Source: a virus
Direction: 5' to 3' (one strand)
UHGV virus genome: UHGV-0384112
DNA: 40,340 nt
This document shows positions 3,338 to 40,104 of this stretch, in pieces. Within the stretch, counting starts at the first letter, position 1. Each line of letters begins with the position of its first letter. The position numbers were made by a program, and so were the translations under genes. The notes below the pieces were generated by a model. That model did not search any database and was not told the DNA's origin. It saw only the letters and a program-made list of their open reading frames with translations.

Positions 3338-3986
3338 AGGCGCAGTACCGCAAATTTTTATTCAGGGATTTATTGGTTCTAGTTGGTTCTTTGAAGGGAA
3401 TACTGACAAGGGAATCAAAAATATTTTGGATAGTCTAGGTGATCAAGAAGAAATTGAAGTAGTAATTAATTCAAACGGTGGAGACGTATTTCAAGGGATT
3501 GCTATTGGGAACTTACTTAAGTCAAATAAAGCAAAAGTTAACGTTGTGATTAACGGCTTAGCCGCTAGTGCTGCTTCAATTATCGCAATGGCTGGCGATA
3601 CTATAAAAATCTACAACAATGCACAATTGATGATTCACCGCGCTTCCACATACGGAGAAGGAAATGTCGATGACTTCCGTACGATTGCTGACCAACTGGA
3701 ATCAATTGATAAATCGGTAAAGGCTTCATATAAAACACGATTCAATGGCACAGATGAAGCATTGCAAGAACTTCTTGAAAAAGAATCGTTTATGGATGCA
3801 GAAACAGCTTTGAGTTATGGATTGGTCGATGAAATTATCGATGCAGAAAATAGCTCAGGTACTGAAGCTAAAAAAGAACAAAGCGTTGAAGAAATTTTGA
3901 ATGACGTTAAAGAAAAAAGAGCAGAAAAAATTGCTGCATTTACAGCAGCATTAAATAAAACATTTGGACAAGGAGATGTAAAATAA
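3300..3986 (+). CDS. prohead serine protease, ClpP-like
   Basis: ClpP-like motifs VINSNGGDVFQGIAIGN, GLAASAASIIAMAGD (Ser) and MIHRA (His). Strong RBS GAAAGGAGGTGA upstream of ATG 3300. The ORF track start at 3291 is probably too early. Confidence 0.8.
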   Translation: MTTMKTFLAVKNEGAVPQIFIQGFIGSSWFFEGNTDKGIKNILDSLGDQEEIEVVINSNGGDVFQGIAIGNLLKSNKAKVNVVINGLAASAASIIAMAGDTIKIYNNAQLMIHRASTYGEGNVDDFRTIADQLESIDKSVKASYKTRFNGTDEALQELLEKESFMDAETALSYGLVDEIIDAENSSGTEAKKEQSVEEILNDVKEKRAEKIAAFTAALNKTFGQGDVK

Positions 3987-5146
3987 TGACAGTTAAAAAT
4001 TTAAAAGGTGTAACAGCTGCAAGCGACCAATTGATGAAAGCTTTTAAAGATGGTAACGAAGAATCTTTTAGCGCAGCTATGGTAAGCTTATCTAAGGAAA
4101 TTCAGGATAAAATTTTAGAAGAAGCAACAGCAAAAAATCAAGATCAATTAGTATTAATGAACCGTGGTCAGCGTGTATTAACTACACAAGAAACAAAATT
4201 CTATAACGAAGTAGTGAAAAACGAAGGTTTTGCAGGGGTCGAAGAATTAGTGCCAGCTACTGTATTTGAACGTGTATTTGAAGATTTAGAACAATCTCAT
4301 CCACTATTGCAAAAAATTACTTTTGTTAACACAACTGGTGTAACAGAATGGATTGTGTCACGTGGAGTCAATCCAGCATGGTGGGGTAAACTTTGCGAAG
4401 CTGTTAAAAAAGTTTTAGATAATGGCTTTGATGTAATTAACATGAAGCAGTTCAAGCTATCAGGTTATATTCCTGTATGTAAGGCAATGCTTGATTTAGG
4501 TCCAGTATGGTTAGATCGTTATGTCCGTACTGTTTTAGTAGAATCATTGAGAATTGCATTAGAACAAGCAATTGTTGATGGTACTGGTAAAGATATGCCA
4601 GTCGGAATGATGCGTGACATGAGCAAACAAACTAGCGGAGAATATGCTGAAAAAAAAGCAGAACCTATTACAGCTTTAGATGCTGTAACTATGGGCGGTT
4701 TGATGGCGCGACTATCAAAATTCAATATCGAAGGTGTGAATGATCCGATTTATCGTAATGTGAATCCTTCTGATGTGGTCCTAATTGTGAATCCAACTGA
4801 TTACTGGTCTAAAGTATTCCCAGCTAAGACTGTACTAACTGCTAATGGAGAATACGTACAAGTATTGCCAGTACCAGTTTCAGATTTGCAGTCAACGGCT
4901 GTGCCAGAAGGAAAAGCAGTTATTGGGGTAGCCTCAGATTACTTCATGGGTGTAGGATCTACACTAAAAATTGAAGCTTCAGATGAATACCATTTTGTTG
5001 AAGACGAACGCATTTATCTAGCTAAACAATATGCAAACGGTCAACCTAAACGTAACGATAGTTTCATTGTATTAGATATTAGCGCTTTGGGAACTACTAC
5101 TACAACTACAAAACCAACAACCACAACAACTACAACACAAGCGTAG
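3986..5146 (+). CDS. major capsid protein, HK97 fold, with N-terminal delta/scaffold-like coiled coil and a C-terminal poly-Thr tail (TTTTTTKPTTTTTTTQA)
   Basis: 386 aa following the protease, with translational coupling (ATAATG). Typical size. The C-terminal run of (ACW)n codons at 5093-5146 is seen directly. Confidence 0.8.
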   Translation: MTVKNLKGVTAASDQLMKAFKDGNEESFSAAMVSLSKEIQDKILEEATAKNQDQLVLMNRGQRVLTTQETKFYNEVVKNEGFAGVEELVPATVFERVFEDLEQSHPLLQKITFVNTTGVTEWIVSRGVNPAWWGKLCEAVKKVLDNGFDVINMKQFKLSGYIPVCKAMLDLGPVWLDRYVRTVLVESLRIALEQAIVDGTGKDMPVGMMRDMSKQTSGEYAEKKAEPITALDAVTMGGLMARLSKFNIEGVNDPIYRNVNPSDVVLIVNPTDYWSKVFPAKTVLTANGEYVQVLPVPVSDLQSTAVPEGKAVIGVASDYFMGVGSTLKIEASDEYHFVEDERIYLAKQYANGQPKRNDSFIVLDISALGTTTTTTKPTTTTTTTQA

Positions 5147-19855: not shown

Positions 19856-19929
19856 GTACCCTTAGCTCAGTTGGTCAGAGCAGACGGCTCATAACCGTCC
19901 GGTCGTAGGTTCGAGTCCTACAGGGTACA
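19856..19929 (+). tRNA. tRNA-Met (or Ile2) with anticodon CAT
   Basis: Cloverleaf folded by hand. Acceptor GTACCCT/AGGGTAC, D-arm GCTC-AGTTGGTCA-GAGC, anticodon arm GACGG-CTCATAA-CCGTC, T-arm GTAGG-TTCGAGT-CCTAC, discriminator A. No CCA is encoded. The G1-C72 pair means elongator type. Confidence 0.8.
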
Positions 19930-24311: not shown

Positions 24312-24508
24312 TTGTGCCAAATTATGTGCCAAAAAAATTCGAATTCAACAAAATGTAAACAAATAGAAAACCTTCTATATTAAGATTTCCTGCAATAACA
24401 AACACAACAGAAGACGTGTAATAGTTAGTCAGGAACGTATAAATAACCCCTGTATCCTTTGCGGTACAGGGGTTTGTTTTGTATTTGTGCCAAAAATGTG
24501 CCAAACTA
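24312..24508. repeat. four copies of TGTGCCAAA in two tandem pairs (24313-24334 and 24487-24508) flanking a hairpin; candidate arm-type integrase-binding sites / attP region
   Basis: Seen directly. Immediately 3' of the integrase gene, where attP usually lies. Confidence 0.4.
24449..24482 (+). terminator. rho-independent terminator (CCCCTGTA-tcctttgcgg-TACAGGGG + TTTGTTTT)
   Basis: Seen directly. It lies between the two TGTGCCAAA repeat pairs. Confidence 0.55.
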
Positions 24509-25675
24509 GTTATCATTTTTATATAAACTATCGAACACAGTATTGATTTTTTCTTTATCCTGATCTTCAAGCTCTCGAACAATATGAAGATAAGTAGACA
24601 TTGTAGTTTCTAAACTGCTATGTCCTAAACGTTTCGATACGCTAAGTATATTTACTCCTTGATAAAGTAAAATAGATGCATGTGTATGCCTTAGTCCATG
24701 CAAAGTAAATTGCTTTTCAATCCCTAATTCTTTTAATTTTTTGCGCAAATATTTGCTGACGGCGTTTGATGAAACTAATCCATTTTTTAAGTTGAAAAAA
24801 ACAAAATTATGAGGGTTTTTGATTTCAAAATTCTCGAATAATTCTTTTTGATTGATTTTAAACTTTTTTAAGAGATCAATCGTATGTTTATCAATGGAAA
24901 TTTTCCTATTTGAAGTTTCGTTTTTTGTTTTTCCCCATTCATTTAATTTATAATTCCATGTTTTATTAATAGTGATGATTTGATCTTCGAAATCGATATC
25001 TTCCCATGTTAATCCTAGAAGTTCAGCAAATCGCATTCCAGTGGCACCAGCAACTAACACGAGCATAGGAGAAGAGTACTGCGCAGAAAGGTTTTCTTCT
25101 ACGAGTTTCATTAAAGATTTAAATTGATCATAATCTAAATATTTATCTTCTTTTGGCTTCAATGAATCTTTTCCTTTGATTACTGCTTTTCTAGTTGGAT
25201 CAAACGGAATTAATCCTTCTTCTACGGCATCTTTCAACGACGCTCTAATATGGTTATTAAACTTAATAACGGTAGATTTTACATGGTCTTTAGCATACTT
25301 ATTTAAAAAGCGTTGATATCCCACTCTATCTAAATCAGAAATCAATACCGCTGGCATATATTTCTTTATGTTCATTAACGTATCTTCGTATTTTCTATAA
25401 GTGATAGGAGATACTGTTCCTTCTTTATAAAGTTGCATCCAATCCTCAAAGTAATCTGATAATAATAGATTTTTGCGATCCCCTTTAAGGCCTTTGTTCA
25501 AGTTATATTCTAATTCGTTGGCGGCATCTTTTGCTTCTCCTTTTGTCTTAAATCCTGATTTTCTTATCTTCGTGTATTTTCCGTCATCTTTTTTGTATGA
25601 AATTTCGTATTGCCAACTATTTCCACGTTTGACTAATCTTGCCATAATTGAATCAGCTCTCTTTCTCTGATACAA
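24506..25675 (-). CDS. int: tyrosine site-specific integrase
   Basis: 389 aa. The C-terminal catalytic region contains R…HGLRHTHASILL…LGHSSLETTMSTYLH (R-H-R-Y). Confidence 0.9.
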   Translation of the reverse strand: MYQRKRADSIMARLVKRGNSWQYEISYKKDDGKYTKIRKSGFKTKGEAKDAANELEYNLNKGLKGDRKNLLLSDYFEDWMQLYKEGTVSPITYRKYEDTLMNIKKYMPAVLISDLDRVGYQRFLNKYAKDHVKSTVIKFNNHIRASLKDAVEEGLIPFDPTRKAVIKGKDSLKPKEDKYLDYDQFKSLMKLVEENLSAQYSSPMLVLVAGATGMRFAELLGLTWEDIDFEDQIITINKTWNYKLNEWGKTKNETSNRKISIDKHTIDLLKKFKINQKELFENFEIKNPHNFVFFNLKNGLVSSNAVSKYLRKKLKELGIEKQFTLHGLRHTHASILLYQGVNILSVSKRLGHSSLETTMSTYLHIVRELEDQDKEKINTVFDSLYKNDN

Positions 25676-37561: not shown

Positions 37562-37978
37562 TTGATGCAATTGTTACGAGAGGTAGATTTCAAACAGACA
37601 AGATGTAATGCGAGAGATGTGCTGAAGAACTTTCGGCGTTTGGAGCGGATGGCAGGTCGCTCTTTGATAGATATTAAGTCGCCGATTATAACGGATATGC
37701 CGAAGGCACCGAAGCATGGCAATAAGGCAGAAGACGCGATTATTCAGATGATGGATATAGAAACGGAGAGAGATGCGATTCTAGCGGCTTTGATGGCTCT
37801 TAGTCTGATTAGTCGTCAGATACTCTACTACAGCTTCTGTGTGCCAGATAGCTTCTCAAACTACAGAATTAGCCGTGAAGTGGGTTATTCAGAAAGAAGT
37901 ATACAACGGATGAAGTCGGAAGCTCTAATAGAGTTTGCAGAAGCATATAAACACGGAAAAATAATTGCTTATAAATAA
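37562..37978 (+). CDS. arpU: ArpU-family late transcriptional regulator (sigma-like)
   Basis: 138 aa in the last position of the early region before the packaging genes. It carries a sigma-70 region-4-like C-terminus (SREVGYSERSIQRMKSEALIEFAEAY). Confidence 0.7.
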   Translation: MMQLLREVDFKQTRCNARDVLKNFRRLERMAGRSLIDIKSPIITDMPKAPKHGNKAEDAIIQMMDIETERDAILAALMALSLISRQILYYSFCVPDSFSNYRISREVGYSERSIQRMKSEALIEFAEAYKHGKIIAYK

Positions 37979-38030
37979 TTTGGCGGTTTTTTGGCGGAAT
38001 GATGGCGGTTTTTAGACATTTACCAGTGTT
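37979..38030 (+). repeat. three direct GGCGG(T)n repeats (TGGCGGTTTTTTGGCGGAATGATGGCGGTTTTT)
   Basis: Seen directly, immediately after arpU. Confidence 0.3.
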
Positions 38031-38286: not shown

Positions 38287-38439
38287 ATGAAATTATCAGT
38301 AGAAGGCACTCCAGAAGAAATACAAGAATTGCTCCAAGCTATTGGTAGTAGCAAGGAGCAAAAGGTAAGTGTTTCTAATTCAGATATTGACGGTATTTGC
38401 AATTGTTTAAACAGAGAAAAAATATCTAATCCTTACTAA
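38287..38439 (+). CDS. small hypothetical protein (50 aa)
   Basis: RBS GGAGGG before ATG 38287. Confidence 0.35.
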   Translation: MKLSVEGTPEEIQELLQAIGSSKEQKVSVSNSDIDGICNCLNREKISNPY

Positions 38440-38723
38440 GAGAAAATATGTTCGTTAATGAATTTCCAATTTTCCTCTGTAGCTCTACCTTGATAATTTT
38501 TTTGCAGTTCACAGATGAATAAGGAATCGTTATTATCAAGTACTGTATTTAATTTTTCACACATTTGATTTGGATTCAAATTAGTTTTAACTAACCAAAA
38601 AGATTTTTGTAGCTTTATATATGCCCCAAATTCTTTTATTATTTCAAATACTTTATCATACTTTTGCCCTGGGTTATTAAGATCATAACTAATCATGTAG
38701 GGTTTATACATGTTGTCTTGCAC
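38436..38723 (-). CDS. hypothetical 95-aa protein with a possible ferredoxin-like Cas2/VapD-type fold (speculative)
   Basis: The beta1 (YMISYDL) - loop - alpha (VFEIIKEFG) - beta2 (AYIKLQKSFWLV) - …DSLFICEL pattern resembles Cas2/VapD at motif level only. There is a TATAAT box about 50 nt upstream on the minus strand. Confidence 0.4.
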   Translation of the reverse strand: MQDNMYKPYMISYDLNNPGQKYDKVFEIIKEFGAYIKLQKSFWLVKTNLNPNQMCEKLNTVLDNNDSLFICELQKNYQGRATEENWKFINEHIFS

Positions 38724-39129
38724 ATCCTTGTTTTATATTTCAGCGGACCACTCGCTGATAAATAAAATTATACGCTTAGTATTTATTTTCACAATATTAA
38801 TTTATCGTAATAACTTTTGAGTAAATAGAACAAAAAACCTGCACTAGTTTCCGCTAGTACAGGCAGTGACTATATCGGTTGATAATCTAGCATATATTGA
38901 AAATAATTGCAAGAAAAGAAATTTATAGTGGTTTATACCAAATTATCAAAGCAATGTTATTTTGTTGCTGTCTATTGTTTTTTAATTATTCACACGATAA
39001 CTAAAGGTGGGTGAAGAGAAATGATTCCATTAATAATTTCAATTTTTGCGCTCTGTCTTAATGTCTATATGATTGGATTTAAAAATGGGCAAAATAAAAA
39101 ATAGTAGCAGCCAAGAATAATTTTATAGT

Positions 39130-39217
39130 GTCACTGTGGCGGAAAGGGTAGACGCTAAGCATGTGTGCTAGGTCAATGCTTCGGCAACCATGCAAGGTTC
39201 GATTCCTTGCCAGCGAC
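39130..39217 (+). ncRNA. tRNA-like element 1 (non-canonical)
   Basis: 5' GTCACTG…3' CAGCGAC acceptor-like pairing with one mismatch. D-arm-like TGGCGG-AAAGGGTAGA-CGC, an AAGCAT/ATGCTT stem with a 13-nt loop, and a canonical T-arm CAAGG-TTCGATT-CCTTG. Confidence 0.3.
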
Positions 39218-39327
39218 ATTAAATGCCTATGACGGTTACGACTACCGAAAAAAGATCGTTAAGAAGCTATACGGTGCTACGTACGGCAATGTAGTAAGTG
39301 TGCTATCTGTACACCACCAAGCTTCGG

Positions 39328-39424
39328 TCACTGTGGCGGAAGTAGAAGACGCAGCGGTAAATGGCGAGTAGCCTCGTGAGAGCCTGGTAAGTTCTCGTGA
39401 GTGGTGCAATCCCACTCCAGCGAC
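39328..39424 (+). ncRNA. tRNA-like element 2 (diverged tandem copy of element 1)
   Basis: It shares GTCACTGTGGCGGAA…GACGC at the 5' side and …CCAGCGAC at the 3' side. T-arm-like GAGTGG-TGCAATC-CCACTC. Confidence 0.3.
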
Positions 39425-39566
39425 TTTAAGCAACCGAGGCATCGGCGGTTTAAAAATATAGGGGTGCGCAATTTCGTACGCGTTTTGTGCATCGTGCAAG
39501 TTACTATTACATATTAGATCACTCTTTGAGTGGTCTTTTTATTTTTGCACAAAGGAGGAAACAACA

Positions 39567-39759: not shown

Positions 39760-40104
39760 ATGACCGAGGAATTCTATAGATGGCTATTACAGTTGACAAG
39801 AGAAGATCGTTTGGTTAAGTTCTATCAGTCTCCTAAATGGCGCAGGCTTAGAGAGAAAGCGATGAAACGAGATCACTATGAATGCCAAGAGTGTAGAAGA
39901 CTAGGTAAGTATCATAGAGTAGAGAACGTTCATCATATAAAGGAAGTCAAGGATAGACCTGACTTAGCTTTAGATTTAGATAATCTTATTTGTTTATGTG
40001 TTGAACATCATAATGAAGTTCATGGCAGATATCTTACAGCATTAGATAAACAAGAGAAGAAGATAGAAAGCTTTGCTAACTTCGATGCAAGTGAAAGGTG
40101 GTAA
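39760..40104 (+). CDS. HNH endonuclease (terminase-associated)
   Basis: CxxC…HHIKEV…NLICLCVEHHNEVHG. Adjacent (in circular order) to terS/terL, as in cos-type HNH-terminase phages. Confidence 0.8.
   Translation: MTEEFYRWLLQLTREDRLVKFYQSPKWRRLREKAMKRDHYECQECRRLGKYHRVENVHHIKEVKDRPDLALDLDNLICLCVEHHNEVHGRYLTALDKQEKKIESFANFDASERW

Follow-up and report, generated by a model that had tools for sequence, protein, structure and literature searches.

The genome UHGV-0384112, analysed here as a single window of 40,340 nucleotides (nt), is that of a temperate siphophage of the Enterococcus type, and the block between its ArpU-family late activator gene and its HNH endonuclease gene holds two tandem tRNA-like units without an anticodon arm, unit 1 at 39130-39217 (88 nt) and unit 2 at 39327-39424 (98 nt), both on the + strand. 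From the comparison with related loci, we consider it fairly probable that these units are genes for small phage RNAs, in which a chassis derived from tRNA-Leu and matured by host enzymes serves as a scaffold for a variable cargo RNA.

Anatomy of the tRNA-like units

The chassis common to both units consists of a 7-base-pair (bp) acceptor stem, U8-G9, a 3-bp D-stem with a tRNA-Leu-like loop, U48, a 6-bp T-stem, and a 7-nt T-loop, and the D-arm sequence TGGCGGAA..GTAGACGC is present in the units. In unit 1, the acceptor is formed by 39130-39136 with 39211-39217, the D-stem by 39139-39141 with 39153-39155, and the T-stem by 39192-39197 with 39205-39210, enclosing the T-loop UUCGAUU (39198-39204); the cargo insert, of family F1 (39156-39191), comprises two hairpins, the first of 4 bp, with the loops UGUG and UUCG, respectively, and the discriminator A (39218) is followed by UUAAA. 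Unit 2 has a type-B chassis and pairs 39327-39333 with 39418-39424 in the acceptor, 39336-39338 with 39350-39352 in a D-stem whose loop, AAGUAGAAGA, is without GG, and 39399-39404 with 39412-39417 in the T-stem (T-loop UGCAAUC, 39405-39411). Its insert, of family F5 (39353-39398), contains the hairpins GCGAG-UAGC-CUCGU and GAGAGC-CUGGUAA-GUUCUC, and its discriminator is a U (39425; trailer U-UUAAG). The spacer between the units (39218-39326, + strand, 109 nt) is nearly identical in 17 tandem loci.

An earlier note on this DNA, made from the letters alone, had described two pairs of repeated boxes here, and both pairs are real, although two positions were 1-2 nt off. The window holds exactly two copies of GTCACTGTGGCGGAA, at 39130 and 39327 (+ strand; not 39329), compared with 0.02 expected even if 2 mismatches are allowed, and the shared 5' box measures 26 nt at 85% identity (39130-39155 vs 39327-39352) rather than the 25 nt first given. 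CCAGCGAC, found at 39210 (not 39209) and 39417 (expected 0.25), is the end of a 27-nt repeat of 74% identity that contains the T-arm. The pairing of GTCACTG with CAGCGAC, likened in that note to an acceptor stem, is realized in 6 of its 7 pairs, the exception in both units being A4.C69. The D-arm-like TGGCGG element is present in both units as described, and so are the T-arms GCAAGG-TTCGATT-CCTTGC and GAGTGG-TGCAATC-CCACTC, except that their stems are of 6 bp and not 5. A 13-nt loop, proposed for the anticodon region of unit 1, is one possible fold, but comparative data favor two short hairpins, one with a UGYG loop on a 4-bp stem and the other formed by GGU/ACC plus UGC-UUCG-GCA. The anticodon position of unit 1 is taken up by a 4-bp stem with a 4-nt loop, and RNAalifold gave for this unit a cloverleaf with compensatory changes. 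Folding of single sequences was uninformative for the block, the z-scores on the + strand being -0.5 to -1.3.

Much of a canonical tRNA is retained in the units: the acceptor, D-arm, and T-arm are found together with the tertiary nucleotides (U8, A14, R15-Y48, G18G19, U54-A58, and C56), with the departures that the T-stem has 6 bp instead of 5, that chassis types B and C carry G in place of U55, and that type B is without the D-loop GG. By contrast, the anticodon arm of a tRNA (a 5-bp stem and a 7-nt loop of the form Y-U-NNN-R-N) is absent from units 1 and 2.

Standard tools and a covariance model

ARAGORN called no tRNA or tmRNA at 39130-39424, its sole tRNA call in the window being tRNA-Met (19856-19929), and Rfam 15 likewise gave no match there with the threshold relaxed to E<=10; for tmRNA, Rfam matched only an 11-nt T-loop fragment (7.1 bits). 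At gathering as well as permissive E-values, Rfam returned no family for the tRNA-like elements in the window and 34 related loci, and its matches on the related loci concerned neighbors only (ROOL, rliG, rli62, mcrA, abiF, and tRNAs). The units are tRNA-derived and, as had been supposed, non-canonical, and these tools put no known family name to them. Covariance model (CM) R1, built from 42 members of which none carries the insert families of the window, and whose E-values are rough, matched unit 1 at 65.1 bits (E 2e-14) and unit 2 at 59.9 bits (E 4e-13), with the next match in the window at 8.6 bits. R1 matched neither the true tRNA-Met of the window nor T4 rnaC/rnaD nor A118 RliG, and gave nothing at E<=0.001 on T4 69500-74500. 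Units 1 and 2 both display the features by which we recognize the chassis-plus-cargo class, namely an acceptor, UG, a D-arm, an insert ending in U, a 6-bp T-stem with a 7-nt loop, the acceptor 3' strand, and no encoded CCA.

Covariation of the chassis

Acceptor pairing was assessed in elements anchored on the T-arm and D-arm motif only, by matching the heptamer that precedes the D-arm against the one that follows the T-arm. Pairing was complete (7/7) in 103 of 111 elements and reached 6/7 in another 6, over 48 stem sequences, while a shifted control never exceeded 5/7; since the test is anchored on the T-arm and D-arm, the covariation is not an artefact of ascertainment. In a 77-sequence alignment of the chassis, from which the inserts were removed, standard pairs occupy 99.3% of the cells and double changes are seen in 13 of 16 pairs, namely all seven acceptor pairs, 2/3 in the D-stem and 4/6 in the T-stem. 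None of 500 shuffles reached this covariation, and it was not matched in any slid register. Covariation in homologous phages, which the earlier note had named as a check, is found in the acceptor, D, and T helices. On the + strand, G.U pairs are more numerous than A.C-type mismatches.

In alignment A1, T8, G9, A14, A15, and C35 (the equivalent of C56) are invariant, and a T directly precedes the T-stem in 86 of 88 insert families. The tertiary contacts of tRNA include U8-A14, A15-U48, and G19-C56, and the invariant T8, A14, A15, and C56 equivalent and the T before the T-stem fit these contacts. The types of D-loop and T-loop also co-vary: AAAGGGUAGA goes with UUCGAUU, AAUAGGUAGA with UGCAAAU, and AAGUAGAAGA with UGCAAUC or GGCAGUG.

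Cargo inserts and their exchange

Delimited by simple BLAST clustering, the inserts of 157 unique elements fall into ~93 unrelated families and range in size from 0 to >250 nt, with insert-less members in L201 (8 nt) and L253 (0 nt). No motif is common to all cargos, as no k-mer rose above shuffles. The hairpins of family F1, carried by unit 1, are kept through A-U, U-G, and G-C exchanges and are present on two T-arm types, and several cargo families are found on 3-5 different acceptor stems. A cargo superfamily of the form UAAUCAG...UAAAACGAGGCGU...ACGCCUAUC extends from Enterococcus to Paenibacillus and Fusobacterium (L013, L090, L228, L275, L307, and L350); its closing stem, of 9 bp, shows compensatory changes in 4 pairs, and its own interior is variable. 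Judged by sequence comparison, the cargo is structured and under selection. Additional T-loop hairpins, of the GGUUCGAAUCC type, are nested within the cargo of L060, L195, L207, L221, L236, L276, and L316. Among 198 predicted cargo hairpins, 3 have an anticodon-like loop (YU-NNN-R), approximately the chance expectation, and the CU-GGU-AA loop of unit 2, which is one of the three, is probably due to chance.

The layout of the window, with two tandem units and a near-identical 109-nt spacer, is found in 17 loci with unrelated upstream flanks, which together carry five unit 1 inserts and three unit 2 inserts. Similarity among these loci stops exactly at GACGC|insert and insert|GCAAGG, truncated copies of the element end at chassis/insert borders too, and in Listeria phages the similarity to A118, A500, and A006 stops at the first base of the element. 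These breakpoints show that the inserts are exchanged as cassettes, precisely at the chassis borders. The open reading frames (ORFs) overlapping the units, taken as spurious in the earlier note, are indeed so, given that the inserts are replaced in related loci and that the spacer shows a 1-nt indel.

Size and distribution of the class

Related loci were retrieved via exact matches to the chassis, using a 15-mer and T-arm patterns. The 15-mer matched >110 loci in IMG/VR and two T-arm patterns matched 98 and >120, and most of these matches have the same chassis with a wholly different middle. After strict filtering, 206 phage and prophage loci remained; their 159 unique elements represent 55 acceptor-stem pairings and measure 51-339 nt (median 122). 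With one genome taken per species, a type-C T-arm pattern was found in 72 contigs, ~60 of which contain a full element (R1 E<=0.001). The carriers include Firmicutes (Paenibacillus, Bacillus, Parageobacillus, Enterococcus, Listeria, Leuconostoc, Lachnospiraceae, and other Clostridia) and, elsewhere, Fusobacterium, Bacteroidales, Ignavibacteriales, Saccharibacteria, Gracilibacteria, and Minisyncoccia, the last groups including Candidate Phyla Radiation (CPR) bacteria. In INPHARED, carriers are the temperate Enterococcus phages EH-TP1, EG-TP1, and VEsP-1, Geobacillus and D6E phages, the Listeria phages vB_LmoS_188, LP-101, and B054, and ~150-kb lytic Enterococcus myophages. Almost all of these records have no annotation under the match; that of B054 has an ORF, which is probably spurious. 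A description of the class was found neither in Rfam 15 nor in the full-text literature searched, whose coverage leaves most subscription journals outside, and the chassis-plus-cargo class is apparently undescribed so far.

Genomic context and processing signals

In the window, the gene of the ArpU-family late activator (phrog_248) occupies 37562-37978, and directly 3' of its stop three TGGCGG boxes in 11-nt phase are followed by a TATTAT -10 element (37981-38008, + strand). This is a probable ArpU-dependent late promoter, and would be the start of a long leader that holds both units. The same arrangement of triple phased boxes and a -10-like element directly after the activator gene is found in VEsP-1, EG-TP1, and A118. 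In EG-TP1 the promoter boxes read ATGTGG/ATGCGG, while the D-arm there remains TGGCGG; the occurrence of TGGCGG in both the promoter boxes and the D-arms of the window is probably a coincidence. A terminator-like hairpin, AGATCACTCTTTGAGTGGTCT, with a T-run (39516-39546, + strand) closes the noncoding RNA (ncRNA) cluster 20 nt before the first late ORF (39567), and at least 30 related loci preserve the sequence of this hairpin (AGATCACUCUUUGAGUGGUCU). Because it stands only 20 nt before the first late ORF, either the late genes are read through it or the hairpin has another role.

Across the related loci, the elements follow ORFs for late activators of three families, phrog_248 (ArpU), phrog_36, and Alt-like (in summary, of the ArpU, RinA, or Alt type), and precede ORFs for HNH, TerS, TerL, or a phrog_704 exonuclease. 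Of 187 elements, 121 have a terminator-like hairpin within 400 nt on their downstream side, against 8 with one upstream. The activator upstream, the phased boxes, and the downstream terminators place the elements in a long leader of the late operon, closed by a terminator. Head-to-tail arrays of elements occur, with three in L321. Where tRNAs lie on the same strand within 300 nt of an element, 33 of 34 are downstream of it. Odd tRNAs are seen just 3' of elements in L065 (4685-4762, - strand), L070 (2174-2250, - strand), L376 (1826-1898), and ~15 more loci, though not in the window; ARAGORN calls them tRNA-Stop(UUA) or tRNA-SeC(UCA), and with an 8-bp acceptor and a 6-bp D-stem with a 4-nt loop they are tRNASec- or allo-tRNA-like.

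In Listeria phages, the slot is filled by RliG, or by a 5' part like RliG/rli62, followed by the element and then an mcrA motif. RliG of Listeria phages is a detected small RNA transcript; as a homolog of the tRNA-like elements it was rejected, R1 giving no match to A118 RliG. In the lytic Schiekvirus EFP01 (L113), the element lies inside a tRNA island, 14 nt after ROOL (2401-2987; RF03087, 264.8 bits), and in L257 another element begins 10 nt after ROOL (709-1287; ~264 bits). That ROOL ends 10-14 nt before an element in two phage contexts suggests that RNase P defines the 3' end of ROOL. The tRNA island of EFP01 also holds further T-arm fragments that the tools do not call (1890-1935, 3516-3545, 4075-4095, 4240-4270, and 4655-4720). 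In L308, from a metagenome-assembled genome of Faecalibacterium, an abiF motif (1941-1977, - strand) exceeds the gathering threshold at 41.2 bits; the element downstream of it (1816-1928) begins after 12 nt and is itself followed by a tRNA.

The acceptor/T helix and the D/T elbow are the parts of a tRNA recognized by RNase P, RNase Z, and the CCA-adding enzyme, and Bacillus RNase Z favors a U after the discriminator. CCA is encoded in 1 of 159 elements, and a T follows the discriminator in 123 of 159. At N-1, 86 of 159 elements have U and 45 have A. As discriminator, 76 of 159 elements, and most acceptor lineages, have A, and 64 elements, unit 2 among them, have U. A CCA-less A-UUA trailer is likewise found on the real tRNA-Met of this phage.

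Proposed maturation and function

The chassis keeps the parts needed by RNase P, RNase Z, and the CCA enzyme and omits those needed for decoding, and the elements are CCA-less with a T after the discriminator; on these grounds we propose that host RNase P would generate the 5' end of each unit from the leader transcript, and that RNase Z would cleave 3' of the discriminator. CCA would then be added to the tRNA-like products, giving stable RNAs. In the window, the products would be two RNAs of tRNA size, the 109-nt spacer, and a 3' RNA capped by the terminator. The spacer would owe its release to RNase Z on the 5' side and to RNase P on the 3' side, and may itself be an independent RNA; elsewhere, identical cuts would set the ends of adjacent ncRNAs such as ROOL. 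The 13-bp (7/6) acceptor/T helix and the absence of an anticodon would exclude the RNAs from decoding. A 13-bp acceptor/T helix is an anti-determinant for EF-Tu in tRNASec, and we speculate that here, too, it would keep the RNA from EF-Tu. Leucylation is conceivable, given A73 in 76 of 159 elements and the indifference of leucyl-tRNA synthetase (LeuRS) to the anticodon, but U73 in 64 of 159, including unit 2, indicates that it is not general. The chassis would then act as a natural "tRNA scaffold" that matures and stabilizes a variable effector RNA, which would work in trans on a host or phage target. The turnover of the cargo and the exchange of cassettes resemble, by analogy, loci of host-virus conflict.

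It is possible, although we put it forward as a tentative extension, that phages of many phyla run a "tRNA-scaffold display," in which a Leu-tRNA chassis presents cassette-swapped effector cargo (anti-defence or host-manipulating aptamers) and provides release sites for ROOL. The swapping of cassettes would proceed by recombination within the conserved chassis halves.

Several points weigh against a host-matured scaffold with functional cargo. Conserved chassis are over-represented among the loci, which were retrieved by exact chassis matches. Because the outermost G-C pair of the T-stem is invariant, covariation does not prove that this stem has 6 bp, and in each unit of the window the acceptor stem contains an A.C mismatch. 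Cleavage by RNase P and RNase Z, the addition of CCA, and the stability of the products are predictions from sequence features. The idea that the cargo acts as a guide RNA was rejected, since complementarity between cargo and phage genome is at chance (41 shared 10-mers vs 37 expected). Finally, the insert-less members indicate that the chassis alone can be a functional unit, which favors the first of the alternatives considered below.

Alternative explanations

In that first alternative, which we regard as unlikely, the elements are pure punctuation: they would be only RNase P and RNase Z cleavage sites in the late leader, whose cuts define the ends of ROOL, the spacer, and the 3' module and part them from the late mRNA, and the released RNA and its insert would be functionless. 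In addition to the insert-less members, the ends of ROOL 10-14 nt upstream of an element (compare the end of MALAT1 at mascRNA) and the constancy of the late-leader position across unrelated regulators speak for it. What it leaves unexplained is the behavior of the inserts, whose families are conserved with compensatory changes across chassis lineages and even phyla, are kept in ~90 kinds at 30-250 nt instead of being lost, and are preserved whole through cassette exchange.

A second alternative, to which we give still less credence, takes the elements as tRNA mimics directed at translation or defence. The CCA-tailed RNA would be charged, probably by LeuRS, or bound by host factors that recognize tRNAs, and would serve as a decoy or inhibitor of tRNA-targeting nucleases or tRNA-modifying toxins, or act on the ribosome like the tRNA-like domain of tmRNA. 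The Leu-like chassis is consistent with this, as a genuine phage tRNA-Leu(UAA) in L078 has the same 5' 15-mer, and so are the retention of A14, A15, and U48, the discriminator A of 76 of the 159 elements and most acceptor lineages, and the tmRNA-like architecture, with the ends in an acceptor stem and an insert replacing the anticodon arm. It is opposed by the discriminator U in 64 of 159 elements, unit 2 included, by the 13-bp helix with its EF-Tu anti-determinant precedent in tRNASec, by the absence of G3.U70, a tag ORF, and an ARAGORN tmRNA call, and by the ~90 elaborate cargo families, which a decoy role does not explain.

That the units are functionless, decaying tRNA pseudogenes is very improbable. 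Such a reading would account for the silence of the tRNA detectors and the missing anticodon arm, but neutral decay cannot be reconciled with covariation in all three chassis helices, with the invariant tertiary nucleotides, or with a 6-bp T-stem that stays constant in hundreds of phages from several phyla. Of the two forms of the first hypothesis in the earlier note, the degenerate pseudogene is therefore abandoned, while a functional tRNA-like ncRNA is strongly supported by the three-helix covariation in hundreds of phages.

We see hardly any room for the second hypothesis of that note, in which the repeats are protein-binding boxes in DNA (cosB/TerS sites, or else extra ArpU sites). The position just upstream of HNH-TerS-TerL and the occurrence of TGGCGG in both D-arms and three times at 37981-38008 would suit such boxes. 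However, the two "boxes" of a unit change jointly between lineages as complementary strands, as expected of the two strands of a covarying RNA acceptor; the element also occurs outside packaging regions, where lytic myophages have their tRNA islands, and in phages with different regulators and different promoter boxes; G.U pairs are in excess of A.C-type mismatches on the + strand; and the terminators are strand-polar. The record ends of VEsP-1 and EG-TP1 are arbitrary, so that they give no cos position.

Decoding tRNAs with introns or giant variable arms, suggested by the anticodon-like loop CU-GGU-AA in unit 2 and by inserts of 200-250 nt, are an equally far-fetched explanation, since YU-NNN-R loops are at about chance (3 of 198 cargo hairpins), inserts of 0-8 nt leave no room for an anticodon arm, and no Rfam group I intron or tRNA model matches.

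Other features of the genome and the late leader

The HNH endonuclease (39760-40104), TerS (153-467), and TerL (436-2139) are confirmed by Pfam, and the integrase is encoded on the minus strand (24506-25675). The block is located upstream of the HNH and terminase genes and is enriched in GC, both as stated in the earlier note (GC 0.44-0.58 at 39100-39500 vs 0.23-0.35 in the flanks).

Downstream of unit 2 lies the 3' module (39429-39505, + strand), a copy of a second modular motif, which consists here of AGCAACCGAGG, a variable G-rich interior, and GTGTAGGTTGCT. In its general form, the motif has AGCAACC(G/A)AGG, a variable G-rich interior with GUGG/GAGG repeats, and GUGUAGGUUGCU, with a closing stem; in the window copy the 3' strand is degenerate (GTGCAAGTTACT). 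The motif is not in Rfam, and its 58 copies, in 31 variants, all lie downstream of tRNA-like elements (e.g., L052 1995-2078 and L015 447-512).

Two small ORFs 5' of the units are of note. One, on the minus strand (38436-38723, 95 amino acids, phrog_1090), is antisense within the late leader and has its own sigma-70-like promoter at 38794-38767; a Cas2-like identity, suggested by eye, was rejected, as Pfam and PDB give no relative. The other, a hydrophobic ORF of 27 amino acids (MIPLIISIFALCLNVYMIGFKNGQNKK; 39021-39104, + strand) with a strong ribosome-binding site just 5' of unit 1, is kept in L050, L062, L085, L178, and L182 and, from its sequence, looks like a type I toxin.

Implications

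If the units are what we propose, they represent a common type of phage RNA gene that is missed by tRNAscan-type tools, by Rfam 15, and by GenBank annotation, and CM R1 makes the class searchable. Shared processing by RNase P and RNase Z would give a concrete reason why ROOL and GOLLD-type RNAs adjoin tRNAs. A hypervariable, cassette-swapping RNA locus at a fixed position is a signature of host-virus conflict, and the ~90 cargo folds amount to a catalogue of candidate functional RNAs. Should the tentative extension to phages of many phyla be true, the late operon would be headed by a previously unrecognised RNA-only accessory locus. The class would also provide a natural precedent for the tRNA-scaffold trick of biotechnology.

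Comparison with known tRNA-like RNAs

The architecture of the units is similar to that of tmRNA, in which the ends pair into an acceptor stacked on a T-arm, the rest replaces the anticodon arm, and maturation is by tRNA enzymes. However, tmRNA has alanine identity (G3.U70), is without a D-stem, contains one conserved insert (pseudoknots and a tag ORF), and has SmpB as a partner, whereas the present class is Leu-like, with a full D-arm, a 6-bp T-stem, and ~90 insert families without a tag ORF. A tmRNA identity was rejected, since units 1 and 2 have C-G at position 3-70 and no tmRNA was called by ARAGORN.

YrlA mimics the acceptor, D, and T arms and keeps the Levitt pair, and some YrlA RNAs are cut by RNase P and CCA-tailed (PMC4201824). 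Its order is T, a closed acceptor, and D, with the termini in the Ro-binding stem and the gene beside Ro60/Rsr (PMC4201824). The order in the present units (acceptor 5', D, insert, T, acceptor 3') is not permuted and there is no Rfam match, and a YrlA identity was rejected. Ro60/Rsr is not among the neighbors within ~1.5 kb (ArpU phrog_248, phrog_1090, phrog_9904, and HNH), the rest of the window not having been scanned for TROVE.

Among phage RNAs, the nearest analog is T4 RNA C, whose 3' part has a canonical T-arm and a short terminal helix with long hairpins between. Like the present class, T4 RNA C and RNA D (species 1 and 2) are small stable late RNAs from a phage tRNA cluster, but they are without a D-arm and a 7-bp acceptor, and the folds differ; from their sequences, they look like analogs and not homologs.

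A true phage class II tRNA-Leu shares with the class its acceptor and D-arm sequence (the first 15 nt in L078), A15-U48, and the lack of an encoded CCA. It differs in its 5-bp T-stem and its anticodon and variable arms, and it is seen by ARAGORN and Rfam.

In the eukaryotic mascRNA/MALAT1 and MHV68 TMER systems, a tRNA-like element recruits RNase P and RNase Z to end an adjacent ncRNA, and is itself released and CCA-tailed. The arrangement of ROOL followed by an element is similar, although mascRNA and the TMERs are without inserted cargo and without a hypervariable domain. Finally, in the engineered "tRNA scaffold" of Ponchon and Dardel, the anticodon arm is reportedly swapped for an RNA of interest, and the chimera is processed and stabilized like a tRNA. 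The design principle is identical, but that scaffold is man-made, whereas the phage units would be its natural, evolving counterpart.

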